From: an uncultured Verrucomicrobiota bacterium | GTDB taxonomy: Bacteria; Verrucomicrobiota; Kiritimatiellia; RZYC01 | Direction of reading: 5' to 3' | Assembly (NCBI GenBank): GCA_964490935.1 | Contig: CAZBEO010000001.1 | Span: forward strand, 20,742 to 84,741 | Length of the DNA stretch: 64,000 bases | Shown here: positions 22,430 through 64,000 of the stretch, in pieces | Layout: each line of letters opens with the position of its first letter | Numbering within the stretch: position 1 is the first letter of the stretch | Notes under the pieces: generated by a model | Databases searched by the model: none | The model's input: the letters and a program-made list of their open reading frames with translations, nothing else | What the model was told of the DNA's origin: nothing | Made by a program: the position numbers and the translations under genes

Positions 22430-23343
22430 CCCCGAAGGTGGAAGCGCTCGATGAGGGCGGCGCGTTCCTCTTCGTTGCTTCGCTCATATTCCGCCTGCGC
22501 ATATTCGTAGAACCGCCCGTCGGGAGGGCGGACGAAAAGGAGCTGTTCGCGTATCCAGTCAAGGGCGCGGGCGAGGGCTTCGGGCGCGAGGGGCGGGGCT
22601 TCGGAATCGAGGCGGTCGGTCCGCACCATCGTCTCTTCACCCAAGGCCTGGGTGAACGCTTCCACGGCGGCCTCATCCGATGGGCGTTCGATGAGGCAAA
22701 GCAGAAGGTCCGGTCGTTTCGCCAAAGGCGCGAGGCTGCCGCTCTGGCCGGAGACGGCGTCGCCAATCCAAGCGGCGAAGGCGGGACGCGGGGACGCAAA
22801 GACGGCGCCGATTTCCGCGCCGGTTCCATACCCCGCGAGAAGTTGTACGCCGGGCAGGATGCGGCAGTCTTTCATCGCGGCACGATAGGTGCAGAGGAGC
22901 GCAGCGAGTACTTTTTCTTCCGGGAGCGAGGGCGGCAGATTGGGTGCCAGCAGTATCCAGCCGCGTGCGCAAAAGACCTCGGCAAGAGCCTCCTGCTGCT
23001 CCGTTTCGAGGTGCGCGGAAACGACAGCCAGCGGGTAACGCTGCGAGGGATGCGCGTCGTAGTCGGCGGGCAGATACAAATCATAGGCGTAGGTTCCCCG
23101 ACGCAGAAGCAACACCCGCTCGCCGATAAAGAAGGGATCGTCGGCTGGAAAATACGTTTCGGCGTGCTGGTTCGTCCAGCAGGGAGCGAGCGAGGCAGGT
23201 GGCGGTGCAGGCGCGGCCAAAACCGTCGCACCGGCACAGATTAAGAGGAACAGCAACCCCAGTCCGAGTGAGTTATCACCCCGGACGGGGTGAAGGCCTA
23301 TAGCCCAGGGTCGGCAGACCCTGGGTTTCTCATTCTCCAACAT
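22405..23343 (-). CDS. putative secreted alpha/beta-hydrolase-fold protein (start uncertain)
   Basis: Signal-peptide-like LGLGLLFLLICAGATVLAAPA followed by a ~280 aa hydrolase-like body. The in-frame ATG at 23343 lies inside a repeat element; an alternative TTG lies near 23256. The long ORF-track extension runs across repeats. Confidence 0.4.
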   Translation of the reverse strand: MLENEKPRVCRPWAIGLHPVRGDNSLGLGLLFLLICAGATVLAAPAPPPASLAPCWTNQHAETYFPADDPFFIGERVLLLRRGTYAYDLYLPADYDAHPSQRYPLAVVSAHLETEQQEALAEVFCARGWILLAPNLPPSLPEEKVLAALLCTYRAAMKDCRILPGVQLLAGYGTGAEIGAVFASPRPAFAAWIGDAVSGQSGSLAPLAKRPDLLLCLIERPSDEAAVEAFTQALGEETMVRTDRLDSEAPPLAPEALARALDWIREQLLFVRPPDGRFYEYAQAEYERSNEEERAALIERFHLRGQGSSINR

Positions 23344-23366
23344 CCCATGCACCCCGGATGGGGTGC
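23262..23366. repeat. ~100-bp MITE-like dispersed repeat, copy A (inverted relative to copy B at 50794..50890)
   Basis: The reverse complement aligns nearly base-for-base with 50794..50890. It ends in a GCACCCC-N4-GGGGTGC hairpin followed by T8 (23371..23380). Confidence 0.55.
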
Positions 23367-23462
23367 GTGTTGTTTTTTTTGTCGGCTTCCCGGGGTCCGA
23401 TGACCCCGTGCCTTTCTCCCCGGCCCCTCCGGGGCCATCATGACGCTGACTTTTGTCGGTAT

Positions 23463-23560
23463 TTCCAACGATTGGAAAAAACGTCTGAAATAGTGCCAAC
23501 GATTGGAAAAACCGTAGCTGCACAGCAGTCCCGCCCACGCGGGATTTCCAATGGTTGGAA
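23463..23560. promoter_or_regulatory. three palindromic TTCCAA-N3-TTGGAA(AAAA) sites (23463..23477, 23495..23508, 23546..23560)
   Basis: Seen directly in the sequence, in the region upstream of the hydrolase gene and downstream of the giant gene. Each site is followed by an A-run. Preceded by the 13-nt GACTTTTGTCGGT, which is shared with the 50896 locus. Confidence 0.35.
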
Positions 23561-23604
23561 AAAACGATTTGAGCGGTTTTTGGCGTGCCGGGTTTCATGG
23601 TGGA

Positions 23605-26600
23605 TCAGGGTATCGAAACTCGGGTGCGGATGTAAAGGGTGCCGTGATTGGTGACGGGTATTTGGATGGCCCCGCCGGTGCCCGGGATGTTGGTCTGGAC
23701 CGCATTCCACTGAGGCGTGGTTAGGTTGGTGGTGGAGTAGATGTGATAGATGCGGTCGGACGCGGTGAAGAAGGTGACGTAGTCCTGCGAGGAGGAGGCG
23801 ACGGGGTTGACGGCAAAGAGCGAGGCGGGATCGGTGGGATCGGTGTGGGCGGTATATTCATCGCGATTGGACATGCCGTCGCCATCGGTATCGTCGTCAG
23901 ACTGGGCCGCGGTGGGGCTGGCGAAGTAGGTGTTTTCCCAGGTGTCGGGAAGTCCGTCGGAATCAGCATCGCCGGTGCAGCCGGTGATTGTCTGGGCGGT
24001 GTTAAGCGATCCACGTGTGGCGTCGGTGGCTGCAGCCCAAGTGAAATCGGCGTAGGTTGTTCCGGCTCCGGAAAGCTGGAGCGAGCGTCCGAGGGCGAGG
24101 GTGGTGGATTCGCTCACGCCGATGTCGGTGGAAAGCGTGCCGACGGCGAGGTTGTTGGCGGCGGTAAAGACCCCTTCATAACTCAGGAACTGAATGACGG
24201 CGGAGTCGGAGCGGCGAACGAGTGCGAGACCGTCGGGTGAGCCGTTTTGCAGGCCGGGCATATCGAACCAGAGGGTGCCAAAGCCGCATCCTTCGTCGGG
24301 CAGGAGGCCGGAAAGGGAGATCGCGCCGGCGTAGGCTTCTCCGTTATAGCCGTTGTAAGGAATGAGGGTGTAGTTGGTAAGGCTGATCCCGGCGGGACCG
24401 GCGATTTCAACGCCTTCATTGGTGTCACCACCGTCGTTATCATAATGGATTTCATTGATCCAAACGGAAGCGGACTCGGCAATACGCAGGGTCACGTCTT
24501 CGAAGTCGACCCCATCATCGCCAACGGCATAGAAGGTGCAGGTGTAGATGCCTACCGGTTGTGCCTGAGCCCAAGTGAAGGTTCCGGAGCCGTTCGTGGA
24601 GCCGAACGTTGCTCCGGATGGAGCGTTGCTGACGGAGAGCGTGATGGGTTCATTGTCGGGATCGGTGGCGGTGACGGCGAAGGAGAGTGAGCTGCCTTGC
24701 AGGGCCGTTTTCCCGCCGATAGCGGTAAGGACCGGCGGATTCGTGTTGCCGATGCGTACTTCCAGGGTGATGGTTTCGGAGTCGGTGAGGCGTCCATCGG
24801 TGGCATAGAAGGTGCAGGTGTAGACGCCGAGAGGATTCGGAGTGAGCCACTCGAACGTATCGCTGAGGAAGGTGGATCCCGCAGGGGCGTTGCTGACGGA
24901 ATAGGTGATGGCGTCGCCATTGTAGTCGGTGGCGTGGACCGTGAAATTCAGGGAGTTGCTCTCGATGACCGATTGGTTACCGATGGGGTTCAGCACGGGC
25001 GGCAGGTTGGTTTCGCCGTTGCAGGGATAAATGAGTTGATGTTCGTTGAGCCACCCGGGCGTGGCGGAATTGGTGGGGTTCGACCAGATGAATTCCATGT
25101 AGTTGGTGCCGAGGCCGCTGAGTTGGAGCGAGTTGCCGATGGGCGTGGTGTCGTTGGATTCACGCACGACGACATCCAGGGAATACTCGCCTGCGGCGGG
25201 ACCGTTGATGGCCAGGAAGGTGGGGCTGTAGCTGAGCAGCACAACGAGGTTCGTCCAATCACGAACCAGGGCGATGCCGCCGGTCTGCTGAAGGATTTTG
25301 GTGAATGGGACGGCGCCGTAGCCGCACCCTTCATCCGGGAGGACGCCGCTCAGCGCGTTGCTGGCATAGACGGAGCCATCGGTGCGGTAATAAAAGAGGG
25401 CGTAATAGGCTAGGTCCAACCCGGCGGTTCCGGCGATTTCCACGAACTCGCCGGTGTCGGTTCCATCGTTGTCGTAATGGAATTCGTTGATCCAGAGATC
25501 GCCTTCGGCAAGCACCTCGATGGTGATGGCCTCTGAGTCGATGCCGTCGTTGTCCACAGCTTGGAAGGTGGTGGTGTAGACACCACATACGGCGGTGTTG
25601 GACCAAGTGAAGACGCCGGTGTCGTCCAGCGAAACAAACGTGGCGCTTGGCGGTAGGTCGAAGGCCGAGAGGGTGATGGATTCCTCATCCGGGTCGACGG
25701 CAGTCACGGAAAATTGCAGGGTTTGATTCTGGATGACATGCCGGTTTCCAATGGGCTGAAGCACGGGCGCATTGGTGGCGGGGCTGACGGTGATCTTCAC
25801 GGAATCACTGTCGGCGCCATCGGTGTCGGTGGCGTAGAATACACACGTGTAGGCCCCCGCGGGTGCGGCATTGCTCCAGGTGAACAGGCCGAGTCCCGCC
25901 TCAGCGGAAAAATTCGCACCGGCGGGCAGATTGCTCACGGTCATGGTAATGGCATCGCCATCGGCATCGGTGGCGGCAACTTCAAAGGAGAGGGTGAGCC
26001 CTGTGGTGATGATCTTGTCGGCCACGTTCTGAATGACCGGCGCCTGCGCGCCGGAGGCCACCGTGATGATGACGGTTTCCGTGCCTGCACCATCATTATC
26101 TACGGCATAGAAGGTGGTGGTGTAGACGCCGGCCGGCACCGCCGAAGCCCAAGAGAACGTGCCGGTGGCTCCACTCGAATTGAACGTGGAGCCGGGTGGC
26201 GCATTGCTGACGCTTAGCGTGATTACATCGCCATTGACATCCACGGCGGTGATTGTGAATTCCAGCGCATTGCTTTGCACGACAATGGGATTACGGATCG
26301 GATAAATGGCAGGAGGTTGCTCTCCGGCGTCGGCGCTGGGGTACATACGCTGAAGTTCATTCAGCAGGCCGTGCGATGCAGCCAAGCCGTTATCCTGCCA
26401 GATAAAATCAGCATACGCGGTGCCCAAGCCGGTGAGCTGAAGCGAGCAGCCCGTCTCTGCGCCGGACTCGGACCCAATGTTCTCGGAGGATTCTTCGGCG
26501 GCTGGCCCAGTCACGCCCACCATGACGCCTTCGTAACTGATAAACTGCACGAGGTTCGTTTCATCCATGACCAGCGCGATGCCTTCCGTTTCGTTCTGCA

Positions 26601-29031
26601 GCCCGCTGATGGGCACCCAGACCGCGCCAAAGCCGCTGCCTTCATCCGGGATGGTACCAACGAGCGCAACGGATTTGTAGGCCGTGCCGTCGCCGCCGTT
26701 GTAGGCGAGCACCGAGTAATAGGAAAGTTCCACGCCGGCGGTTCCGGCGATTTCCACGCCTTCATCGGCATCCGTGCCTGCGTTGTCGTAATGGAGTTCA
26801 TTGATCCAGACCGTGCCATCCACCAGCACACGAATGGTGGCCGTGCGCGATTCCGTACCATCGGCATCCGTCGCCTGGAACGCACACGCATACACCCCGG
26901 CGGGCCCGGCGTTCGGCCATGAAAAACTTCCCTGCTCATTGGTGGAGGCAAAGAAGGCACCGGCAGGAAGGTTGGTGCAGGAGAGCGTGGCTGTGTCGCC
27001 ATCGGTGAGTTTGGCGTGTACGGAAAATTCGAGGGTTTGCCCTTCGGTCACGCGCTGGAGGGGGATGGCATCGAGCGAGGGCGGCGTGCGCCCGAGACTG
27101 AAAGATTTCATCACGGCCATGTGCGCATTTCCTATGGAGTCCGAATCGCTGTTCAGCACGGGCGAAGGCGGGGGCGGATTCGTCCAGAGGCGCGTATCGA
27201 AAACGAGCCCGTCGTGGAAGTCAACGCCCTGCACGGTCGTGCGGTAGTGATTTTCTTCGAGGTTGCGGCTGGGCAACACGTAGTCGAATGGGTACTCCCG
27301 GTTTCGGCTTGTTTCCGTGACCCCATATTGATCGGTGGGCTTGCGGGCATCGCTAACGACGTTGGTCAGAATCGCCAGGCAGGGCTCGGCACGCGACGCG
27401 GTGTTCAGGTCGCCGGCGATAACCAGATAATCGTTGGTCGGAAAATTCGCCAGAGCGATGTAGTTGGTCAGCAGGCGTGCCTCGGCGGCGCGATCCTCTT
27501 CGGTTCCAGAATAATAGATATGCAGACTGACCACGTGCAGATCGCGGTCGCCGGGGATATCAATGGTGGCCCAGGCGATATCGCGGTTCGCCGTGATCGG
27601 ATCGGCCCATTCCCCCGCGGCGGTGATGGGCCAGCGGCTGATAATGGCGTTGGGCTGCGGAAAATAGGCGCTGGATTGTGGTTCGATGTAATAATAATAC
27701 TCCGTGCCGAAAAAGACATCGACGAATTCGCGCATCGTGCTGTTCGTGATGTTACACTCTTGTAACCCGACAATATCCGGCTTCAGGGCGTGAAAGATGC
27801 GGTACGCCGGCTCCTTGTAGACCGAAGGAAAGCCATCAACCAAGTTGGCGGCCATGATGGAGATCGTTTCGTTGTCGCGGATCGAGAGCGTATGCGTGGC
27901 GGGCTCTCCGATCGTTGCCCCCTCCGCCCCATCCAGCGTCAGTGCGAGCGTTTCCACGCTTTCCATGTTGTCATCATCGGCAATCACCACGGAAATCATC
28001 TGCTGCGTTTCGCCGCCCGCCGTGAACACCAGCGAGGTGGGCGACACCGTGTAGTCCACCCCCGCCGAGGCCGTCCCGCCCGCATCGCCGATCCACACCG
28101 TCACATCCGCCGAACGCGAAAGAACCACGGCTACCTGCTGCGTACCGACATCCTCGTCCACCAGCGCATCCGCATAGGCGAAACAAACGGAGGGCGGTTC
28201 CGCCACCGTCAGGTTGACTTCGTCCAGGCTGTACCCATCCTTATCCGACGCATAAAACTGCATCGTTTGGACGCCGACGGGCGTCGCGCCCGCCCAGCGA
28301 AACGTCCCGTGCTCATTGGTCGAGACAAACGTCGAACCCGAGGGCGCGTTGCTCACCGACAGCGTCACCGGATCGCCATCCGTGGGCGTGGCAAACACGC
28401 TAAACTCGATCGTATCGCCCAGGGTGACGGTTCGGCTGGGAATGGCCTGTAACACGGGCGGCGTGTTGGCCGCTGCGCCATCATAATAATACAGCTCCAC
28501 GAATTCATAAAAAAAGTTGGCGGCATCCGAATATTCCGTAATCACCAGCACCGAGGTCTCGTCGGTTCCGACGCCCCCGACGCCCGGGGTCGCATCCGCC
28601 ATGCCCAGGGTACTCCAGTTGGTGACGGCATCGCCGCCCACCGAGGCATTCAGGCGCTGGATCGAGTTCCTTTTCGGATCACGCGACAAGGGCGTCGGGC
28701 CATCCAGCACCACCGAAGAGGCGTCCAGCAGGGAAAACTGTTCGCCGCCATCAATCACCGGCAACTGATTTTCCGCATTGAGGTAGAGCACTTCATCGCC
28801 CAGTGTGACCCCCCAGTACGCTTCAAAGTCGGCGCGGGAACCGTAACGACCAACAATCAGGTATTCACCCGGCTCGATCGTCGTTCCATCGGGCAGCGTA
28901 TACGTCTTGCTCCTGTTGGTTTGCTTGACCTTGTACCCCGAAACATCCAGGGCCGACGCCGTAACCACCAACGAGAGCCCCAGCAACATGGCGCACCACA
29001 GCTTAAAATATCCCGAGCTTCTGCATCCCAT
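23605..29031 (-). CDS. giant secreted multidomain protein (1808 aa): lamin-tail domains x4, Ig-like (He_PIG-type) repeats x~7, Calx-beta, endonuclease/exonuclease/phosphatase (EEP) domain, C-terminal Ca-binding Asp-rich module
   Basis: LTD motifs (WINELHYDNAGTDADEGVEIAG, LWINEFHYDNDGTDTGEFVEIAG, VWINEIHYDNDGGDTNEGVEIAG). EEP motifs (LQEC...AGDLNTASR...FDYVLP). Calx-beta (VDYTVSPTSL...SIRDNE). Signal peptide. ATG with an AAGGA RBS. Confidence 0.7.
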   Translation of the reverse strand: MGCRSSGYFKLWCAMLLGLSLVVTASALDVSGYKVKQTNRSKTYTLPDGTTIEPGEYLIVGRYGSRADFEAYWGVTLGDEVLYLNAENQLPVIDGGEQFSLLDASSVVLDGPTPLSRDPKRNSIQRLNASVGGDAVTNWSTLGMADATPGVGGVGTDETSVLVITEYSDAANFFYEFVELYYYDGAAANTPPVLQAIPSRTVTLGDTIEFSVFATPTDGDPVTLSVSNAPSGSTFVSTNEHGTFRWAGATPVGVQTMQFYASDKDGYSLDEVNLTVAEPPSVCFAYADALVDEDVGTQQVAVVLSRSADVTVWIGDAGGTASAGVDYTVSPTSLVFTAGGETQQMISVVIADDDNMESVETLALTLDGAEGATIGEPATHTLSIRDNETISIMAANLVDGFPSVYKEPAYRIFHALKPDIVGLQECNITNSTMREFVDVFFGTEYYYYIEPQSSAYFPQPNAIISRWPITAAGEWADPITANRDIAWATIDIPGDRDLHVVSLHIYYSGTEEDRAAEARLLTNYIALANFPTNDYLVIAGDLNTASRAEPCLAILTNVVSDARKPTDQYGVTETSRNREYPFDYVLPSRNLEENHYRTTVQGVDFHDGLVFDTRLWTNPPPPSPVLNSDSDSIGNAHMAVMKSFSLGRTPPSLDAIPLQRVTEGQTLEFSVHAKLTDGDTATLSCTNLPAGAFFASTNEQGSFSWPNAGPAGVYACAFQATDADGTESRTATIRVLVDGTVWINELHYDNAGTDADEGVEIAGTAGVELSYYSVLAYNGGDGTAYKSVALVGTIPDEGSGFGAVWVPISGLQNETEGIALVMDETNLVQFISYEGVMVGVTGPAAEESSENIGSESGAETGCSLQLTGLGTAYADFIWQDNGLAASHGLLNELQRMYPSADAGEQPPAIYPIRNPIVVQSNALEFTITAVDVNGDVITLSVSNAPPGSTFNSSGATGTFSWASAVPAGVYTTTFYAVDNDGAGTETVIITVASGAQAPVIQNVADKIITTGLTLSFEVAATDADGDAITMTVSNLPAGANFSAEAGLGLFTWSNAAPAGAYTCVFYATDTDGADSDSVKITVSPATNAPVLQPIGNRHVIQNQTLQFSVTAVDPDEESITLSAFDLPPSATFVSLDDTGVFTWSNTAVCGVYTTTFQAVDNDGIDSEAITIEVLAEGDLWINEFHYDNDGTDTGEFVEIAGTAGLDLAYYALFYYRTDGSVYASNALSGVLPDEGCGYGAVPFTKILQQTGGIALVRDWTNLVVLLSYSPTFLAINGPAAGEYSLDVVVRESNDTTPIGNSLQLSGLGTNYMEFIWSNPTNSATPGWLNEHQLIYPCNGETNLPPVLNPIGNQSVIESNSLNFTVHATDYNGDAITYSVSNAPAGSTFLSDTFEWLTPNPLGVYTCTFYATDGRLTDSETITLEVRIGNTNPPVLTAIGGKTALQGSSLSFAVTATDPDNEPITLSVSNAPSGATFGSTNGSGTFTWAQAQPVGIYTCTFYAVGDDGVDFEDVTLRIAESASVWINEIHYDNDGGDTNEGVEIAGPAGISLTNYTLIPYNGYNGEAYAGAISLSGLLPDEGCGFGTLWFDMPGLQNGSPDGLALVRRSDSAVIQFLSYEGVFTAANNLAVGTLSTDIGVSESTTLALGRSLQLSGAGTTYADFTWAAATDATRGSLNTAQTITGCTGDADSDGLPDTWENTYFASPTAAQSDDDTDGDGMSNRDEYTAHTDPTDPASLFAVNPVASSSQDYVTFFTASDRIYHIYSTTNLTTPQWNAVQTNIPGTGGAIQIPVTNHGTLYIRTRVSIP

Positions 29032-31399: not shown

Positions 31400-31420
31400 A
31401 ACGATTTCGCTGATTCTTTT

Positions 31421-31435
31421 GGAGGGTGAGCGTCC
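31421..31435 (+). repeat. GGAGGGTGAGCGTCC, a REP-like dispersed motif copy
   Basis: Member of a motif family also seen at 32651, 43451, 56635, 60318 and 60436. Confidence 0.5.
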
Positions 31436-31518
31436 ATGGATTGCCATTCAACACCACGGGCTGAAATCCCGCGCTACACGGGCACAGCCACCACACAGAA
31501 CTCATGCATGATCCATGG

Positions 31519-32460: not shown

Positions 32461-32650
32461 AATCTGAGACTCATATTTTCACTCTTGGAAGCCAGCATAG
32501 CCCGTTCAATTTTACTGCGCCACTTTTCTCTCCCAAAACTTTCTATGCGATCTATGCGTTCCTTGTGGTGAATGAAAAACAACAGACTCGCGATGGCCTT
32601 TGCGAAAAATGGCCCTTTCGGATCATGCCTTTCGTGTTTTACGGTTCGCG

Positions 32651-32665
32651 GGGACGCTCACCCTC
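32651..32665 (-). repeat. inverted copy of the GGAGGGTGAGCGTCC motif
   Basis: An exact reverse complement. The following ~45 nt (ATGAATGGCCATTCAACACCACGG...GCGCTACA) are a direct repeat of 31436..31480. Confidence 0.5.
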
Positions 32666-32846
32666 CATGAATGGCCATTCAACACCACGGCGCGGAAGCC
32701 CGCGCTACATTCAATCATCTTGCGCCTGCGCCATTTTCGTCCCTTGACTTTTTAGTACGTCCACTCCAAAAATAGCCGCCGGTGGAAAAGACCCATGGCA
32801 TTTCGAGCATGGCTATATTGATAGCATCAATTTCAAAGAGTGACGT

Positions 32847-37444: not shown

Positions 37445-37586
37445 AAGCATTCTCATCGCGCCTCTCTCTCGGGAGGGCCCGTGTCCCCACGGGCCAAGCG
37501 GAAAGTGAGCGCGGAGAGTACAGAGAAATATGGAACGACCTGAAGATCAATAAAAGGCCGTTGGGGACAACGACCCTCCCCAGAAC

Positions 37587-43339: not shown

Positions 43340-43368
43340 GAACCCCGCATCGCGATTGAATTGAAAAA

Positions 43369-43397
43369 GAACCCCGGACAACCGGGGTTCTTTTTTT
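43369..43397 (+). terminator. Rho-independent terminator (GAACCCCGG-loop-CCGGGGTTC + T7)
   Basis: Seen directly in the sequence, just after the Tsx-like gene stop. Confidence 0.65.
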
Positions 43398-43450
43398 GAC
43401 GTAGCACGGGCTTCCAGCCCGTGATCTTCAGCGAAAGGCTGGCAGAGCCT

Positions 43451-43475
43451 GGAGGGCGAGCGTCACGGCGAACCG
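43451..43475 (+). repeat. GGAGGGCGAGCGTCACGGCGAACCG REP-like motif copy
   Basis: Closely related to the copies at 56635..56659 and 60436..60460. Confidence 0.5.
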
Positions 43476-43500
43476 TCTCGGGATTAATGTACCCTATTGT

Positions 43501-49842: not shown

Positions 49843-50778
49843 ATGACCTCTCCCGAACTCGTGACTATTCCCGATTCATTCAACTACATCGGAATCTTTC
49901 TTACCTTCCGCTGTCCCTACCGCTGCTCCTACTGCATCAACCAGTACGGCAACGGCGTTCACCTCGACTACCCCGAAATCCCCGGCACCGACTGGGTGAA
50001 TTTCTTCCGCCGACTCCCCGCCAACGACATACCCATTACCCTCCAGGGCGGTGAACCCGGACTCCACCCCGACTTCTTCTCCATCCTGCACGACACCCTC
50101 GAATTTCACCCCGTGGACATCCTGACCAACCTCGCCTTTGATCTCGACCGCTTCATTGCCGAGATTGATCCCGCTCGCATCAATCGACCCGCCCCTTACG
50201 CCCCCATTCGCGTCAGCTTCCACCCCGAACAATTTTCTCTGCCCTTTATCACCGAAAAAATTCTTCTCCTCATGAACGCTGGATTCCGCGTCGGCCTCTA
50301 CGGCGTAACCCACCCCAATCAGACAGACCTCATGGAAGAGGCCGCCAGCACCTGCCGAAACCTGGGCATAGACTTCCGACTCAAACCCTTTTTGGGCACC
50401 CACCAAGGAAAACTCCACGGACAATACACCCACCCCGATGCCTGCGACGGAAAGTCCCCCCGCACCTGCGACTGCGCCACCTCTGAACTGCTCGCCGCCC
50501 CCGACGGCACCATCCACCGCTGTCACACCTTTTGCTACCGGCACCTCCAACCCGTGGCCACCATCTACGATGCCCAACTCACCCTCACCGACGACTTCAC
50601 CCCCTGCAATCTCTTCGGCCAGTGCAACCCGTGCGACATCAAAGTAAAAAACAACCGCTTCCAGCAGTTCGGCCACGTCGCCACCCGCATCCGAAACATT
50701 CGCTCAAAAGTTTGCGACATGATGGCCCCGGGAGGGGCCGAGGATAATAGCCCGGGGTCAGCGACCCCGGGAAGTTGA
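49843..50778 (+). CDS. radical SAM protein with Cys-rich SPASM-like C-terminus
   Basis: CPYRCSYC cluster motif and C-terminal CDC...C...C...CNPC cysteines. Translationally coupled to the GT9 gene. Confidence 0.6.
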   Translation: MTSPELVTIPDSFNYIGIFLTFRCPYRCSYCINQYGNGVHLDYPEIPGTDWVNFFRRLPANDIPITLQGGEPGLHPDFFSILHDTLEFHPVDILTNLAFDLDRFIAEIDPARINRPAPYAPIRVSFHPEQFSLPFITEKILLLMNAGFRVGLYGVTHPNQTDLMEEAASTCRNLGIDFRLKPFLGTHQGKLHGQYTHPDACDGKSPRTCDCATSELLAAPDGTIHRCHTFCYRHLQPVATIYDAQLTLTDDFTPCNLFGQCNPCDIKVKNNRFQQFGHVATRIRNIRSKVCDMMAPGGAEDNSPGSATPGS

Positions 50779-50793
50779 CAAACAAAACAAGAT

Positions 50794-50890
50794 GCACCCC
50801 GGAGGGGGTGCATGGGGTGTTGGAGAATCAGAAACCCAGGGTCTTCCGACCCCTGTGCTATATGCCTTCACCCCATCCGGGATGTAACTC
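50794..50890. repeat. ~100-bp MITE-like dispersed repeat, copy B
   Basis: Aligns with the reverse complement of 23262..23366. Starts with a GCACCCC-GGAG-GGGGTGC hairpin, followed by GACTTTTGTCGGT (50896..50908). Confidence 0.55.
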
Positions 50891-50916
50891 ACGCGGACTT
50901 TTGTCGGTGGAATCAA

Positions 50917-56380: not shown

Positions 56381-56608
56381 ATGAACCCTTGTTTAGCCTT
56401 TGGTCAGCCCGGTTGGCTGGAAATACTCCTGGTCCTGCTGATTGCCCTGCTCCTGTTCGGCTCGAAAAAACTACCCGATCTCGCGCGCGCCCTCGGGAAA
56501 AGCCTCAGTGAATTCAAGCGCGGCAAGGATGAAGTCGTCCGGGAACTCACCCAAAGCGACGGGCCGGGGGAAAAAGAGAAAGAGGACGAACCCACAAAGC
56601 CACTCTAA
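56381..56608 (+). CDS. tatA: twin-arginine translocase subunit TatA/E
   Basis: WLEILLVLLIALLLFGSKKLPDLARALGKSLSEFKRG signature. RBS AGAGAGG. Confidence 0.75.
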   Translation: MNPCLAFGQPGWLEILLVLLIALLLFGSKKLPDLARALGKSLSEFKRGKDEVVRELTQSDGPGEKEKEDEPTKPL

Positions 56609-56634
56609 GGGCCTTGGAGCCCTTTTGTTTCACT

Positions 56635-56659
56635 GGAGGGCGAGCGTCCACGCGAGCCG
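56635..56659 (+). repeat. GGAGGGCGAGCGTCCACGCGAGCCG REP-like motif copy
   Basis: Intergenic, between the tatA and receiver-GHKL genes. Confidence 0.5.
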
Positions 56660-56693
56660 CTTCAGCCGACGGATTTCCGTCCGGCCAGGAAAC

Positions 56694-59782: not shown

Positions 59783-59902
59783 TTAGCAGGCACACTTCGA
59801 CTCCCCGGAATTGTGTTGAATGAGACGGTGATCAATATCCTCCGACAGGCCAATATATTTGCGCCCCGTCGCATTTTGAAGGATATACACTTGGTAATTC
59901 AT
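59783..59902 (-). pseudogene. truncated N-terminal fragment (39 codons) of a GIY-YIG gene, inside direct-repeat copy 1
   Basis: Identical to the first 36 codons of the 59989..60243 gene, followed by a premature stop. Confidence 0.45.
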
Positions 59903-59915
59903 AGATAAAAAAAGG
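59793..59915. repeat. 123-bp perfect direct repeat, copy 1 (copy 2 at 60134..60256)
   Basis: Identical base-for-base by eye; contains the GIY-YIG start and N-terminal coding region. Confidence 0.7.
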
Positions 59916-59942
59916 CCGGAACATGCGTTCCGGCCCTCAAGT

Positions 59943-59990
59943 TGGTAGCGGGGGTTGGATTCGAACCAACGGTCCCGCAGATGCGGGATT
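59943..59990 (-). other. partial tRNA-Met-like 3' half (anticodon loop CTCATAA + identical T-arm/acceptor/CCA) without a matching 5' half
   Basis: 28 nt identical to the 3' end of the tRNA at 60562..60637, plus an identical anticodon loop. The 5' region is GIY-YIG coding sequence. It is followed by the same terminator hairpin. Confidence 0.45.
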
Positions 59991-60243
59991 ATGAGCCGGG
60001 AGAAAGGCCTGTCAGTCGATATAATCCTGACCCACCTTTTTGCCGTTTTAAGAGATTTTCAAGCTTTCGGGCTTCGGTCAGGGTCAAGGGCGAAGAGGAC
60101 CAAATCAACGTCCAGGGGCCCTTTCCGCGAGTCCACTTCGACTCCCCGGAATTGTGTTGAATGAGACGGTGATCAATATCCTCCGACAGGCCAATATATT
60201 TGCGCCCCGTCGCATTTTGAAGGATATACACTTGGTAATTCAT
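59989..60243 (-). CDS. small GIY-YIG nuclease-superfamily protein (UPF0213/YhbQ-like)
   Basis: YQVYILQNATGRKYIGLSEDIDHRLIQHNSG...KWTRGKGPW motifs. Its stop codon lies in the anticodon-loop-like CTCATAA of the partial tRNA. Confidence 0.65.
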   Translation of the reverse strand: MNYQVYILQNATGRKYIGLSEDIDHRLIQHNSGESKWTRGKGPWTLIWSSSPLTLTEARKLENLLKRQKGGSGLYRLTGLSPGS

Positions 60244-60256
60244 AGATAAAAAAAGG
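60134..60256. repeat. 123-bp perfect direct repeat, copy 2
   Basis: Identical to 59793..59915. Confidence 0.7.
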
Positions 60257-60317
60257 TTCTTCCGGGTTTTTCGTGAAATCTGTACCTATCACGGACGCGA
60301 AAAGAATCTGAATATAC

Positions 60318-60342
60318 CGGCTCGCGGGGACTCTCGCCCTCC
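60318..60342 (-). repeat. inverted REP-like motif copy (CGGCTCGCGGGGACTCTCGCCCTCC)
   Basis: Reverse complement of the motif family. It could pair with the copy at 60436..60460 to form a long hairpin. Confidence 0.5.
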
Positions 60343-60435
60343 AAGTCTTGGATTTGATAGCATTAATATCCTATTCATCAACAACATGTTAAACAATTAA
60401 TAGCAAACTTGGCCTGTAATGCCCTGCAATTATGT

Positions 60436-60460
60436 GGAGGGCGAGCGTCCTCGCGAGCCG
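60436..60460 (+). repeat. GGAGGGCGAGCGTCCTCGCGAGCCG REP-like motif copy
   Basis: Sits in the tRNA-GIY-YIG spacer. Confidence 0.5.
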
Positions 60461-60523
60461 TAGAACATCAATCTTTAGAAATAGCTCAAAATGGCAGAAT
60501 GCTCACGAAATTCCCGGAAGAAC

Positions 60524-60554
60524 CTAAAAAAAGGCCGGAACATGCGTTCCGGCC
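60524..60554 (-). terminator. Rho-independent terminator downstream of tRNA-Met (GGCCGGAAC-loop-GTTCCGGCC + T7 on the minus strand)
   Basis: Hairpin plus U-run, seen directly in the sequence. An identical copy at 59905..59937 follows the partial tRNA. Confidence 0.6.
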
Positions 60555-60561
60555 CTCAAGT

Positions 60562-60637
60562 TGGTAGCGGGGGTTGGATTCGAACCAACGGCCTTCAGGT
60601 TATGAGCCTGACGAGCTACCAGGCTGCTCCACCCCGC
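60562..60637 (-). tRNA. tRNA-Met (anticodon CAT); D-arm and overall sequence resemble initiator tRNA-fMet
   Basis: The reverse complement, GCGGGGTGGAGCAGCCTGGTAGCTCGTCAGGCTCATAACCTGAAGGCCGTTGGTTCGAATCCAACCCCCGCTACCA, folds as a cloverleaf with an encoded CCA. It is nearly identical to E. coli tRNA-fMet across the D-arm and acceptor. Confidence 0.85.
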
Positions 60638-60710
60638 AGTCATTTCGTCTCGAATGGGGGGCAATATGACGCCCCTTCTTCTGCTTTGCAACCCCTTTTT
60701 TAACCTTTCT

Positions 60711-63560
60711 TTAATTCACCGGTTCGGCCTGCCCAAATCCCCAAGGCTGGGTGCGCGGGGTTTGGGTGGCGCTTTGCCAGATATACCATAGGCCGAGTTC
60801 AGGCGCATAGACGGTGCGATCGTATTTCCCGTCGCCATCGAAATCCGCCGGGACGGCATACGCGTCACTCCAGCCCCAATACTCGCTGCTCGTGGTCTGC
60901 GTGGCCGAGAGCCAGGCGCGCCACAAGCCGGTTTCCGGCGCGTAGACGGCCACATCGGCAAGACCGTCACCATCGTAATCGCCCGGCATGGCAACCGCCT
61001 GGTTGTTACCCCATGCCTGCGAACGTCCGGTTTGGGTGGCGCTCTGCCAGATCAGCCACGTACCGCTTTCCGGTACGTAGACGGCGATGTCCGTGAGTCC
61101 ATCGCCATCGTAATCGTCCGGCACGGGTCCGGCTTCATTCCAGCCCCAAGCCTGCACGCGCATCGTCTGGGTGGCGCTCTGCCAGATCAACCATGTGCCG
61201 CTTTCCGGGACATACACGGCAATGTCCGTAATACCGTCGCCATCATAATCGCCCGGCACGGGGAACGCCTCGGCCCATCCCCAAGCCTGTACGCGCGCGG
61301 TCTGCGTCGCGCTCTGCCAGATTAGCCAGGTGCCGCTTTCCGGCGCATACACGGCCACGTCATAGAGGCCATCGCCATCGAAGTCGCCCGTCACCGGATA
61401 GGCATCGCTCCAGCCCCATGCCTGGAAGCGTCCGGTCTGTGAGCTGGATTGCAGGATGCTCCACGCGCCGCCTTCTGCGTAGTAGACGGCGATATCGGCG
61501 ATGGTGTCGCCATCGTAATCGAGATAAGCGGCAGGCATCCGCATCGAAGCCTCTATGGAGGCGTCGCCGTTGTCCGCTCCATAGAATGCGCGGACCGTGT
61601 AGTAGAACGTCTGACTGTTCGTGAGGGAGGTATCGGTCCAGGAGGAGGCACCCTGAGCGGCCTCGCCCACGAATACGCCTGTCCCGCCCGGTGTGGCCGA
61701 GCGATAGATCAGGAAGCCCTTTTCGCCGCCGATCGGGGCCCAGCCGATGCGTATCGCGCGTCCCGCGCGCGTGGTCGTCAAATTCGTCAGCGCCAGGGGA
61801 TATTCATAAGCGCCCATATCCACGGCGGCACCAATGATACGACTGTTTCCGAATACATCGTTGGTACTGGCCATCCAGCTTTCGTTGGTTCCCGCATTGA
61901 TGCAGGGGGATTCGATCTGAAGCCTTGGATCGGAGTCACTCACGAATAGCGGATCGTTGGTGATGCAATGCACAAAATCCACCTGACTCGGACGAGTGCA
62001 GCAGTAGGCCATATCCACGGCGGCGCCTTCGAAGGCGTACTCGGAAACCCCCTCGTCGTCGACATTGCCGTAGATGATGGAGTTACGGATGACGGCATCC
62101 GCTCCCACGTAAAGTCCGGCATTGGTGGTTGCCGAATTGAAGGCCACCGTGCAACTGAGAAGAGAGGCTTGGGTTTCCCCTTCCTCCGAAGGAACGATGG
62201 CCACACCACCGGCCTGACCCTCGGCTTGGTTATCGGTAATGAGCGTATTTCGGACTTCAGCATCGCCTTCCAATTGAACGCCGCCGACGTCGCCCTCGCT
62301 ATAGTTTTCAACGACATAGCTGTTGATCATCCGCCCGCCGTTCACCCAAACGCCGCCGACTTTTCCGGTATGGACCACGCTGTCTACCGTTTCGCTGGTG
62401 GCTTGGTTGAAGACCATGTAGCAGGTGTCAAGGAGCCCATAGCCCTGCACATACGCGCCTCCCGCAGAGTTGGCCGTGTTAAGTAGAAGATAGGTGTTGC
62501 GCAGGATTCCCCCATCGGCGAGAAACACCCCTCCGGCGCGACCATACGGCTCCACCCCGAAGGCATAATTTCCATAGATAAAGCATTGTTGGAGCAGTCC
62601 GCCACCGTTGAGCCACGCGCCGCCGCCGGAAAGCGCCGTCCCTTGGAACAGGATGCTGCCGTTCAGCGTGCCACCGTGCTCGAAGTAAGCACCGGCGCCA
62701 CGGCGGGCGGTGTTTCCGTATACCGAGCATTCCTCGGACGTTCCATCCTGATTGAAATACAATCCGCCGCCGTCTCCAAGCGCGATGTTTTCGTGCAGAT
62801 CGCAATCGCTCGCGAGGGCGCTGTTTTCCAGGCCGAGGCCGGCGGCATCTCCATCGGATTCGTTGCCGATAAACTCGCAACGGCTGATACGCGAAGAACC
62901 TGCCGCGCGACCTCCGGCATAGGACCCCGCCCGGTTACTGATGATGCTGGCATCGGTCAGCAAGGCCTTTCCGCCCATGTTGACGCCGCCGTACCTATTG
63001 GACGCCGTGTTTCCGGAAATAGTCACATTACTGACGGTTCCGGCGAGCAATTCGAGCCCCGCGGAATAATAGTCGGCGCCGCCGGTCAGCGTGAAGGTGT
63101 GCACGAAGGCATTGCTGTGATCCACGTTCATCACGCGACAAACACCTTGTCCATTCAGGATCACATTTTCCTTGGCAGGCACGCCGTTCAGGGTCATCCG
63201 TTTGAGGACGGTCACCGGCGCGGTCAGGTTGTAGGTTCCGGGGCCGACCAGCGTGGTACCGCCCACGGCGCAGGCGTCAATCGCGTCTTGGACGTTGGTG
63301 GCGGCATCAAACCAGTTCGTGAACGGAGTAACATGCAGTCCGCTCGGTGAGACGTAATTGATAAAGCCCGACTCCACCACCCGTACGGTGCCGTGGCGGA
63401 GGCCACACCGCCCAGATTCGAGGCCGTCAGCACCACCGGATAGAGACCCGGCGCACTCCAAGAAGCCGTGATGAAGGTTTGGTCGGTGTAGGTATTCGTG
63501 ACGCCCACCCCGGTAACAGTCCAAACCAGACTGGCAGGCTTGCCGAACAGGGAAGCCCAC
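60711..63560 (-). CDS. C-terminal ~890 aa of a giant secreted protein: right-handed beta-helix region, FN3 domain, six FG-GAP-like repeats (frame A downstream of a frameshift)
   Basis: Beta-helix repeats with NxxGGG-type turns. FN3 segment (GWAPIGGEKGFLIYRSATPGG...FYYTVRAFYG). Repeats of the form GDYDGDGxxDxAVY...WxxWQSATQT. The first ~55 residues of this ORF look non-native. Confidence 0.6.
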   Translation of the reverse strand: MGFPVRQACQSGLDCYRGGRHEYLHRPNLHHGFLECAGSLSGGADGLESGRCGLRHGTVRVVESGFINYVSPSGLHVTPFTNWFDAATNVQDAIDACAVGGTTLVGPGTYNLTAPVTVLKRMTLNGVPAKENVILNGQGVCRVMNVDHSNAFVHTFTLTGGADYYSAGLELLAGTVSNVTISGNTASNRYGGVNMGGKALLTDASIISNRAGSYAGGRAAGSSRISRCEFIGNESDGDAAGLGLENSALASDCDLHENIALGDGGGLYFNQDGTSEECSVYGNTARRGAGAYFEHGGTLNGSILFQGTALSGGGAWLNGGGLLQQCFIYGNYAFGVEPYGRAGGVFLADGGILRNTYLLLNTANSAGGAYVQGYGLLDTCYMVFNQATSETVDSVVHTGKVGGVWVNGGRMINSYVVENYSEGDVGGVQLEGDAEVRNTLITDNQAEGQAGGVAIVPSEEGETQASLLSCTVAFNSATTNAGLYVGADAVIRNSIIYGNVDDEGVSEYAFEGAAVDMAYCCTRPSQVDFVHCITNDPLFVSDSDPRLQIESPCINAGTNESWMASTNDVFGNSRIIGAAVDMGAYEYPLALTNLTTTRAGRAIRIGWAPIGGEKGFLIYRSATPGGTGVFVGEAAQGASSWTDTSLTNSQTFYYTVRAFYGADNGDASIEASMRMPAAYLDYDGDTIADIAVYYAEGGAWSILQSSSQTGRFQAWGWSDAYPVTGDFDGDGLYDVAVYAPESGTWLIWQSATQTARVQAWGWAEAFPVPGDYDGDGITDIAVYVPESGTWLIWQSATQTMRVQAWGWNEAGPVPDDYDGDGLTDIAVYVPESGTWLIWQSATQTGRSQAWGNNQAVAMPGDYDGDGLADVAVYAPETGLWRAWLSATQTTSSEYWGWSDAYAVPADFDGDGKYDRTVYAPELGLWYIWQSATQTPRTQPWGFGQAEPVN

Positions 63561-64000
63561 AGCTCGGTGCTGTCATTCACGCGCAGGGTATCTTCGTTCA
63601 GGATATAGACGATACAACTCGGAAGCAGATTGGTCGGGATGACCTCATCGCAGCCGATGTCCACCGTTCCTTCATAGATGCGCGATTCGGAATCATAGTC
63701 CACTTCCCCGTTCACGATCCCGGAAGAATCCCCGGCATTACGTGCAGGCGAAGAGGGCAGGATGTGCGGATTGTGCAAGCTGGCCAGGCGAGGATTGGCA
63801 CCCGTGATGTTGCCCGTTCCAGTGACGCCGGGGGTGGTCAGACAATAGTTCACTTCGATAGCGCCACTCGGCTTGTAATTATCGGCACCCACTGGCGCTT
63901 CGTTGTAGTACATGAGACTGTTGCGCGTGATGCCCTTGCCGTGCAGGACTCCGCCACCGTACCCCTCGGCCAGGTTGCGCACCACCGTACAATTACGCAT
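63224..64000 (-). CDS. N-terminal/middle portion of the same giant protein in a different frame (continues beyond the window); the two parts are separated by a frameshift near 63392..63400
   Basis: Ig/PKD-like sequence up to ...TASNLGGVASA, then junk-like tail. The frame of the 60711..63560 ORF becomes protein-like at exactly this point. Confidence 0.5.
   Translation of the reverse strand: MRNCTVVRNLAEGYGGGVLHGKGITRNSLMYYNEAPVGADNYKPSGAIEVNYCLTTPGVTGTGNITGANPRLASLHNPHILPSSPARNAGDSSGIVNGEVDYDSESRIYEGTVDIGCDEVIPTNLLPSCIVYILNEDTLRVNDSTELWASLFGKPASLVWTVTGVGVTNTYTDQTFITASWSAPGLYPVVLTASNLGGVASATAPYGWWSRALSITSHRADCMLLRSRTGLMPPPTSKTRLTPAPWAVPRWSAPEPTT

Follow-up and report, generated by a model that had tools for sequence, protein, structure and literature searches.

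The window, by which we mean the whole 64-kb stretch of DNA analysed (64,000 nucleotides), is by Pfam an ordinary chromosomal region carrying flagellar rod, ring and hook genes, cheA, rpsB-tsf, htpG, tatA and a sugar transporter. No record identical to its HtpG was found, and homologues locate the organism only loosely: the nearest named match to HtpG comes from a 'Spartobacteria' MAG (64% identical), and a Chthoniobacterales contig shows 71-73% DNA identity to the window at the sugar transporter. Distributed among these genes are eight copies of a short footed hairpin, here termed a REP, of which five are full-length, one is truncated and two are sequence variants. All of them lie between genes (8/8), as the original prediction had stated for the copies it described, and the genes flanking all eight have Pfam support. 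A second, GTAG-footed hairpin (REP-B) and a MITE that encloses two of the REPs complete the set:

31421-31435, + strand: truncated REP, first 15 nt GGAGGGTGAGCGTCC only (GGAG foot, left arm GGTGAGCG and loop TCC, without the right arm)
31455-31477, - strand: degenerate REP-B, adjoining the truncated GGAG REP at 31421
32642-32666, - strand: full REP, 1 mismatch to the search pattern; subtype T7/A22
32685-32709, - strand: REP-B, 18 nt from the REP at 32642, arranged as at 43401/43451
37472-37495, + strand: variant REP, GGAG-GGCCCGTG-TCCC-CACGGGCC; perfect 8-bp stem; left half of the heterodimer at 37470-37582
37556-37579, - strand: variant REP, GGAG-GGTCGTTG-TCCC-CAACGGCC; 7/8 pairs; right half of the heterodimer at 37470-37582
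43401-43425, + strand: canonical REP-B, GTAG-CACGGGCT-TCC-AGCCCGTG; just past the intrinsic terminator at 43370-43397
43451-43475, + strand: degenerate REP, 3 mismatches, 2 of them breaking stem pairs
56635-56659, + strand: consensus REP, 0 mismatches; 10 nt past the tatA terminator hairpin
60255-60524, no strand assigned: MITE carrying a REP doublet, 270 bp; 22-bp terminal inverted repeats GGTTCTTCCGGGWWTTTCGTGA; 8-bp target duplication TAAAAAAA
60318-60342, - strand: REP, left arm of a head-to-head doublet; 1 mismatch; inside the MITE
60436-60460, + strand: consensus REP, right arm of the doublet; 0 mismatches; inside the MITE

The 25-mer pattern GGAGGGYGAGCGTCCNCGCGAGCCG, allowing up to three mismatches, matches the window five times against 0.01 expected from dinucleotide-preserving shuffles (0/100 shuffles reach five), so the dispersed motif reported earlier is real and the repeat is a direct observation. 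The two variant copies (37472 and 37556) come from a structure-based scan for foot, stem and TCC loop and not from the sequence search; the scan yields 201 sites on real sequence but a single one once the sequence is reversed, while a scan with looser rules for GTAG- or GGAG-footed hairpins did no better than its null. The original prediction had claimed at least seven copies and listed six, of which those at 43451, 56635, 60318 (inverted) and 60436 stand as given; its '32651' is the middle of the copy at 32642-32666 (-), 31421 holds the first 15 nt only, and the structure-based scan brings the total to eight. Its 25-nt form, described as conserved in three copies, is exact in two and differs by one mismatch in two more. 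The window contains two doublets, 37472/37556 and 60318/60436, the latter with an AT-rich spacer of 93 nt (60343-60435).

Convergent gene pairs bound four of the six occupied intergenic regions (31400-31518, 37445-37586, 43340-43500 and 56609-56693), and terminator-like hairpins adjoin the copies at 43451 (hairpin 43370-43397) and 56635 (hairpin 56607-56624), which agrees with the convergent gene ends and terminators noted earlier. This setting is relevant to a first alternative, in which the motif is a host cis-element that selection maintains for a function of its own, without involvement of a transposase, acting either as a 3'-end RNA hairpin in mRNA stability or backup termination or as the binding site of a conserved host protein. 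It is favored by the convergent bias, by three copies positioned immediately 3' of a terminator hairpin and reading in the sense direction of the upstream gene, and by the mRNA-stability and termination roles documented for E. coli REPs (PMC6006769). A T-run following the REP hairpin is however absent from the window copies, so that the REP is not itself an intrinsic terminator.

The three REP-B copies in the window each lie 18-25 nt from a GGAG-footed REP, and the 43401 copy folds as DNA at -9.6 kcal/mol (z = -5.6). The 15-nt REP fragment at 31421 is inverted relative to the arrangement at 32642. Together, REP-B and the GGAG-footed REP form BIME-like mosaics.

Each REP unit is composed of a GGAG foot, an arm GGCGAGCG, a TCCN loop, an arm CGCGAGCC and a 3' G. 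In the 8-bp stem, six Watson-Crick pairs enclose a central tandem G.A/A.G and the base of the stem is formed by three G-C pairs, while the sole freely variable base (N) is located in the loop. The foot stands directly at the stem base with G1 and G4 at least 90% conserved, and reads GGAG where the described foot of RAYT-associated REPs (RAYT, REP-associated tyrosine transposase) is GTAG or GTGG. Relative to the consensus, the 32642 copy combines C7>T with G22>A, a compensatory C-G to T-A change in the stem. Copies from other genomes preserve the stem with the arm pairs GGCGAGTG/CACGAGCC, GGCGAACG/CGTGAGCC and GGCGAATG/CATGAGCC, and Watson-Crick pairs take the place of G.A in the variants GGCCCGTG/CACGGGCC (window 37472) and GGCGCGTG/CACGCGCC.

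Covariation was assessed on 59 distinct copies that had been gathered by similarity to the consensus and not by structure. Pair changes on both sides fill 23 cells compared to 4.2 in shuffles (0/500 reach 23), and the covariation score is 0.171 against 0.087, with every slid control lower. Pairs 10-19 and 11-18 alternate among GC, AU and CG, while positions 8-9/20-21 remain G.A/A.G in 49 of the 59 copies. The hairpin is shown here through its covariation, the compensatory changes supporting the stem; the conserved tandem G.A mismatch is a candidate recognition feature for biochemistry. On its own, a consensus unit is no more stable than shuffled sequence (-5.5 kcal/mol, z = -0.55) under nearest-neighbor parameters, which give the tandem G.A no credit and score it as an internal loop. 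Perfect-stem variants reach -10.8 kcal/mol (z = -4.0) and -11.6 kcal/mol (z = -3.5), significantly more stable than shuffles, and inverted doublets form long hairpins with z = -7 to -11.

One-genome-per-species contigs were scanned for the exact pattern, and the exact 25-mer was found at no fewer than 117 loci, at least, in ~60 assemblies among the matches listed (counted by accession prefix), so the motif extends well beyond the window to which it might have been confined. Among these matches most assemblies are labelled Kiritimatiellae, Lentisphaerae/Victivallales or Verrucomicrobiota (Chthoniobacterales, Opitutales, Puniceicoccaceae), together with one Planctomycetales MAG and a few Nitrospirales, Fimbriimonadaceae/Armatimonadota and Acidimicrobiia MAGs, the taxon labels being those of the metagenome bins. 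The foreign loci were picked by exact match, and conservation among them is therefore overstated. Beyond the 25-mer the flanks differ between genomes, although copies from a single genome often share a longer repeat. In a termite-gut Kiritimatiellae MAG (within L013-L117, for example L018, L020, L040, L083 and L087) the REP is embedded in a longer GTCCTGTAAAATACAGATTTCACGAT-[REP]-TTAGACACAT unit, and a 13-mer of this repeat, ACAGATTTCACGA, recurs at the inner edge of the terminal repeat of the window MITE; the shared 13-mer could reflect chance or common ancestry. A literature search for the 15-mer found no paper. Among viral contigs the 25-mer is present on one only, giving no sign of phage carriage.

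These loci (at least 117) hold 211 copies, of which 76 are singles. Head-to-head pairs number 44, mostly with gaps of 22-36 nt, tail-to-tail pairs number 10, typically with 12 nt between the units, and there are 18 tandem pairs. The tandem arrays have spacers of 5-11 nt that are themselves repeated, and in some genomes regular periods of 30-36, 49-51 or 65 nt. Such regularity, together with the very stable long hairpins of the doublets, would suit a second alternative in which the doublets encode a ribozyme or other small structured RNA, or the arrays work in the manner of CRISPR or of uptake signals. Against this, Rfam 15 at gathering thresholds reports tRNA-Met alone for the whole window, and at E-value thresholds a doublet gives only generic long-hairpin (microRNA-precursor) matches that fall far below threshold. 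Neither the sequence nor the length of doublet spacers is constant, the copies in the window are scattered, and the short, repeated spacers of the arrays do not resemble those of CRISPR. The density of ~1 copy per 8 kb and the strong depletion from genes are likewise unlike DNA uptake sequences, and we regard this alternative as extremely improbable.

The bias towards extragenic DNA is directly observed in the foreign loci as well. Positions deep in coding-like ORFs (150 nt or more into a long ORF with a coding-like GC pattern) account for only 14% of their copies compared to 69% of random positions, a ~5-fold depletion, so the motif is not found mainly within coding regions, which the original prediction would have counted against itself. 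An estimate from greedy ORF overlap (64% of copies in ORFs, with 91% ORF coverage of the loci) was judged unreliable in this G+C-rich DNA, because REPs lack stops and extend ORFs. No gene family recurs in the neighborhood of the at least 117 loci, as expected for dispersed repeats. A presence/absence difference among close relatives is also seen directly. The intergenic region between tatA and the response regulator carries a REP in the window, while in two relatives (HtpG 95% and 86% identical) it is unrelated in sequence and REP-free. The only insertion with clean junctions is that of the DDE-type MITE.

The copies at 60318 and 60436 travel as cargo of this MITE. Segment 59780-59972 is duplicated at 60121-60591, where the second copy is split by the 270-bp element, and the duplicated segment retains the empty site (59899-59925). 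The insertion point lies in the T-tract of the tRNA-Met terminator. Three parts make up this tandemly duplicated cassette: the 5' portion of a gene for a small GIY-YIG nuclease (complete at 59989-60243, - strand; Pfam PF01541), the terminator of tRNA-Met, and ~27 nt from the end of tRNA-Met itself, such that the tRNA-Met end at 59946-59972 duplicates 60565-60591 of the intact tRNA-Met (60562-60638, - strand). The duplication looks like an integration or homing-type footprint at a tRNA 3' end.

Scanning metagenomes for the terminal repeat identified eight contigs with the element family, one of them (Ga0075120_10004565) 99.97% identical to window 60137-64000, and a ninth match (L127) that shares the pattern only. 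The family is multi-copy in metagenomes Ga0075120 and Ga0208648, and another MITE copy has the target duplication GTTTTTTT. Contig L128 (2145-4400) contains a 2.26-kb element with the same ends and a 459-aa transposase assigned by Pfam to DDE_Tnp_1, in which a REP doublet is located between one end and the transposase start. The shared ends and doublet identify the window MITE as a deletion derivative of an IS that gained a REP doublet. An ISL3-like identity of the MITE was considered and dropped, as Pfam gives the parent transposase as DDE_Tnp_1. At 37470-37582 the variant doublet forms a conserved heterodimer of ~110 nt. Contig L130 (12168-12275) has this heterodimer solo, and it recurs within other MITE copies, sometimes accompanied by an additional consensus-type unit in tandem. 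The unit composition differs among the MITE-borne clusters, which, like the presence/absence difference next to tatA, is indirect evidence of mobility.

A third alternative follows from this association, namely that the motif is internal sequence of DDE insertion sequences and their MITEs, is spread only through their transposition, whether cut-and-paste or copy-and-paste, and is associated with RAYT genes incidentally. The enclosure of 60318/60436 in a 270-bp element with terminal repeats, a target duplication and an empty site next door is consistent with this reading, as are the same doublet in the full-length IS of L128 and the variant doublet held by other MITE copies in the same metagenomes. 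However, the window has just two occurrences of the terminal repeat, and it is missing from all 117 matches listed; terminal repeats with a target duplication bound 60255-60524 only, the six other window copies having none nearby; and the variant doublet is MITE-free both at window 37470-37582 and in L130. In addition, the flanks past the 25-mer vary between genomes, and the in-frame copies inside RAYT genes (below) would be left unexplained. For the family as a whole this reading is largely refuted, and we consider it very unlikely.

Within the 64-kb window, Pfam annotation of the ORFs and the RAYT search revealed neither a RAYT nor any other transposase gene; the RAYT that the original prediction suggested looking for was found in other genomes (L005, L118, L119 and L131). 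All ORFs of the at least 117 loci were compared to approximate RAYT-like query sequences, which yielded a single match on the rumen Kiritimatiellae contig L005. The ORF at 918-1784 (288 aa) matches NCBIfam NF047646 (REP_Tyr_transpos) with E = 2.7e-20 and 72.7 bits (cutoff 80) in two stretches, as the motif lies in frame within the gene and divides the match. Eight exact in-frame copies are present, three in sense orientation near the N-terminus, which translate as EGERPREP, and five in antisense orientation, which translate as AAR(V/A)DARPPV and are positioned between the HUH motif (PDHIHFF) and the tyrosine region (YVRNNPV).

With the array stripped out, the L005 protein has 319 homologues. 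In the best 120 of these 319, the sense peptide is found in 21, the antisense peptide in 26 and both in 17, so that 30/120 contain the repeat, invariably at the N-terminus or between the HUH and Tyr motifs. Across L005, L118 and P0001-P0013 there are 1 to at least 5 antisense units between HUH and Tyr and 1-3 sense units at the N-terminus, and near-identical proteins vary in copy number (one in P0001, two in P0003, three in P0004). In the RAYT gene of L118 (856-1449) one sense copy occupies codons 10-18 and three antisense copies lie between HUH and Tyr; a good Shine-Dalgarno precedes its ATG, indicating that the N-terminal copy is translated. A diverged RAYT (L119) has a matching variant hairpin, GGAGGGCGCGTGTCCCCACGCGCC, at both positions and further variants nearby. 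Other members of the clade have different repeat peptides in the same loop (GRVALVATG/AATSAALP, GGRPSPAAA and EGACPHAPG). The clade aligns to E. coli TnpA_REP (PDB 4ER8) with E = 1.4e-9 across the HUH and W-Q/Tyr regions, and the insert-free member P0113 passes the NCBIfam cutoff (91.1 bits versus 80).

The RAYT gene of L131 (146-760, - strand) is flanked by four upstream units (800-1100) and one downstream unit of ~120 nt (1-140), each a head-to-head pair of GGAG-GGCGTCGG-GCT-CCGACGCC and GGAC-GGCACGCG-GCT-CGCGTGCC. This arrangement is a textbook REPtron, and the contig shares the MITE family of the window. As neither of its flanking hairpin types was found in the window, the L131 RAYT was rejected as the cognate of the window copies. 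A cognate RAYT flanked by or overlapping its REP was found in L005, L118, L119 and L131, and the coupling of the repeat to this RAYT clade is in these genomes a direct observation.

The RAYT genes also bear on the host cis-element. RAYTs that are just 55% identical carry the same repeat, so the 25-mer is better conserved than the transposase, and its identity across ~60 assemblies among the matches listed likewise favors a selected site. Conversely, the orthologous intergenic region of close relatives is REP-free, no gene family recurs alongside the repeat, and tandem arrays with 5-11 nt spacers and copies inside transposase ORFs are hard to fit to regulatory sites. We judge a host element unlikely as the explanation of the family; a host role is compatible with RAYT-driven spread, to which it may be secondary.

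The motif is thus probably the unit of a REP family spread by a cognate RAYT of this clade, with the two MITE copies as cargo. The REP/BIME reading of the original prediction gains support from the foot, the imperfect hairpin with its variable loop, the occurrence as singles, doublets and mosaics, the extragenic placement and the RAYT clade found elsewhere. We infer that a RAYT of this clade exists in the genome of the window and moves the window copies. Points that weigh against the reading are the lack of a transposase gene in the 64 kb, the different hairpins beside the L131 RAYT, the GGAG foot, the poor predicted fold of a lone consensus unit, and a 25-mer that is identical across several phyla, which departs from published descriptions of REPs. 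Each unit would fold into a hairpin as single-stranded DNA or RNA, and inverted doublets could fold into long REPIN-like hairpins. By analogy to E. coli TnpA_REP and to IS200/IS605 ends, the cognate HUH/Y1 tyrosine transposase most likely recognizes hairpin and foot on single-stranded DNA, cuts and rejoins it. Its action would spread or reshuffle copies into gaps where they do little harm, chiefly between convergent genes beyond terminators, the copies at 60318 and 60436 having arrived otherwise, as IS-derived MITE cargo.

REPs and their transposases have been studied almost wholly in Proteobacteria, where each species has its own sequence. The element type found here, a REP with a RAYT, is known, whereas the exact family is probably new. 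Like E. coli REP/BIME elements with TnpA_REP (4ER8), the family consists of short extragenic hairpins with a four-base 5' foot and a stem mismatch, occurring singly or as inverted pairs and two-type mosaics, mostly at gene 3' ends. It differs from E. coli REPs in its foot (GGAG, not GTAG), in the irregularity of its stem (tandem G.A/A.G), in hairpins that lie within the transposase reading frame and do not just flank it, and in a 25-mer common to many species, not one. The REPINs of Pseudomonas fluorescens SBW25 are likewise inverted REPs that form one long hairpin with a short variable spacer (Bertels and Rainey 2011, PMC3116915). Singletons resemble decayed halves in both systems, 76 singles being present here, whereas in the present family heterodimers that combine two stem types and have a conserved spacer make up many of the doublets, and tandem arrays occur commonly.

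The closest likeness of the in-frame arrays is described by Quentin et al. 2018 (PMC6006769), where REPs are species-specific and TnpA_REP genes of subclass 2.4 hold frame-preserving REP insertions between the HuH and Tyr motifs, so that the in-frame arrays reported here are not a new phenomenon. Subclass 2.4 (RAYT group 4) and the present clade share HuH-Tyr inserts that are in frame and variable in length, and both have REPs with three G-C pairs at the stem base. The Tyr motifs resemble each other, YIxNNP there and YVRNNP here, and the HuH motif differs, being NH[IFV]H there and DH[IV]H here. By alignment to 4ER8 the present insert falls just before the W-Q strand, in the alphaC-beta4 loop, in contrast to a position between beta3 and alphaC in subclass 2.4. 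The hosts are PVC bacteria here as opposed to Cyanobacteria and Bacteroidetes, and the GGAG foot falls outside the GTAG/GTGG search rules of Quentin et al. (PMC6006769); it would escape published searches based on these feet.

GTAG- and CGTC-tagged REPs are known from over 80 species (Di Nocera et al. 2013, PMC3733652), Opitutus terrae and Rhodopirellula baltica among them, with dimers, intragenic copies and REPs that overlap RAYT gene ends, and with degenerate tags such as GTGG in GTAG-20. The REPs of O. terrae and R. baltica resemble those here as tagged stem-loops of PVC bacteria in several coexisting families. Head-to-head and tail-to-tail dimers and frequent intragenic copies are shared, and the window also contains the GTAG-footed hairpin at 43401. 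So far as the text of that paper shows, the present family is not among the GTAG/CGTC consensus types, though it may coincide with one of the degenerate-tag families. Subterminal hairpins of IS200/IS605 elements are also 20-25 nt in length with a 5' guide tetranucleotide and are recognized on single-stranded DNA by an HUH/Y1 enzyme, as may hold by analogy here; unlike them, the present hairpins are dispersed alone and multi-copy, and the transposase gene lacks the boundaries of a mobile unit.

REPIN-RAYT systems are, reportedly according to Bertels and colleagues, mostly vertically inherited, in contrast to which the exact 25-mer here occurs in ~60 assemblies among the matches listed. The 25-nt hairpin, including its tandem G.A, is letter-identical in these assemblies, which are labelled as seven lineages, four of them PVC, among the matches listed. 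Such constancy across distant genomes could reflect strong constraint or horizontal spread. It is possible, though on balance doubtful, that the REP is unusually ancient or unusually mobile, with a hairpin constrained beyond its transposase (for example by a host function) or with REP and RAYT units that cross phyla. The same doubtful reading includes a transposase that could remodel or regulate its own gene, as the clade has in-frame arrays of variable length inserted just before the W-Q strand, near the REP-binding surface of the literature. Movement of such units between phyla would run contrary to the view of vertical inheritance and species specificity, and letter-identical sharing across species makes the family a test case for whether REP-RAYT inheritance is always vertical. 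For PVC bacteria, which have received little study, the family supplies a REP that is well defined. When metagenomes of these phyla are assembled, the repeats create spurious ORFs (EGERPREP and AARxDARPP peptides) and contig breaks.

Additional repeats of other kinds are present in the window. Six 135-nt in-frame repeats (60717-61489) within an FG-GAP/beta-helix protein gene (60711-63560) and several long internal repeats inside a 1808-aa ORF (23605-29031) are coding domain repeats unrelated to the REPs. A repeat of ~195 nt occurs in two inverted copies (23262-23455 and 50705-50900, 87% identical) and consists of five successive G+C-rich hairpins, one then followed by a T-run; it has no match in Rfam, and the ORFs downstream of its two copies are mutually non-homologous. 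Directly adjoining this repeat, a 27-nt sequence, CGGTATTTCCAACGATTGGAAAAAACG, with the palindromic core TTCCAACGATTGGAA, is present in three copies within 23457-23566, with starts 31 and 52 nt apart, and could be an operator-like site.
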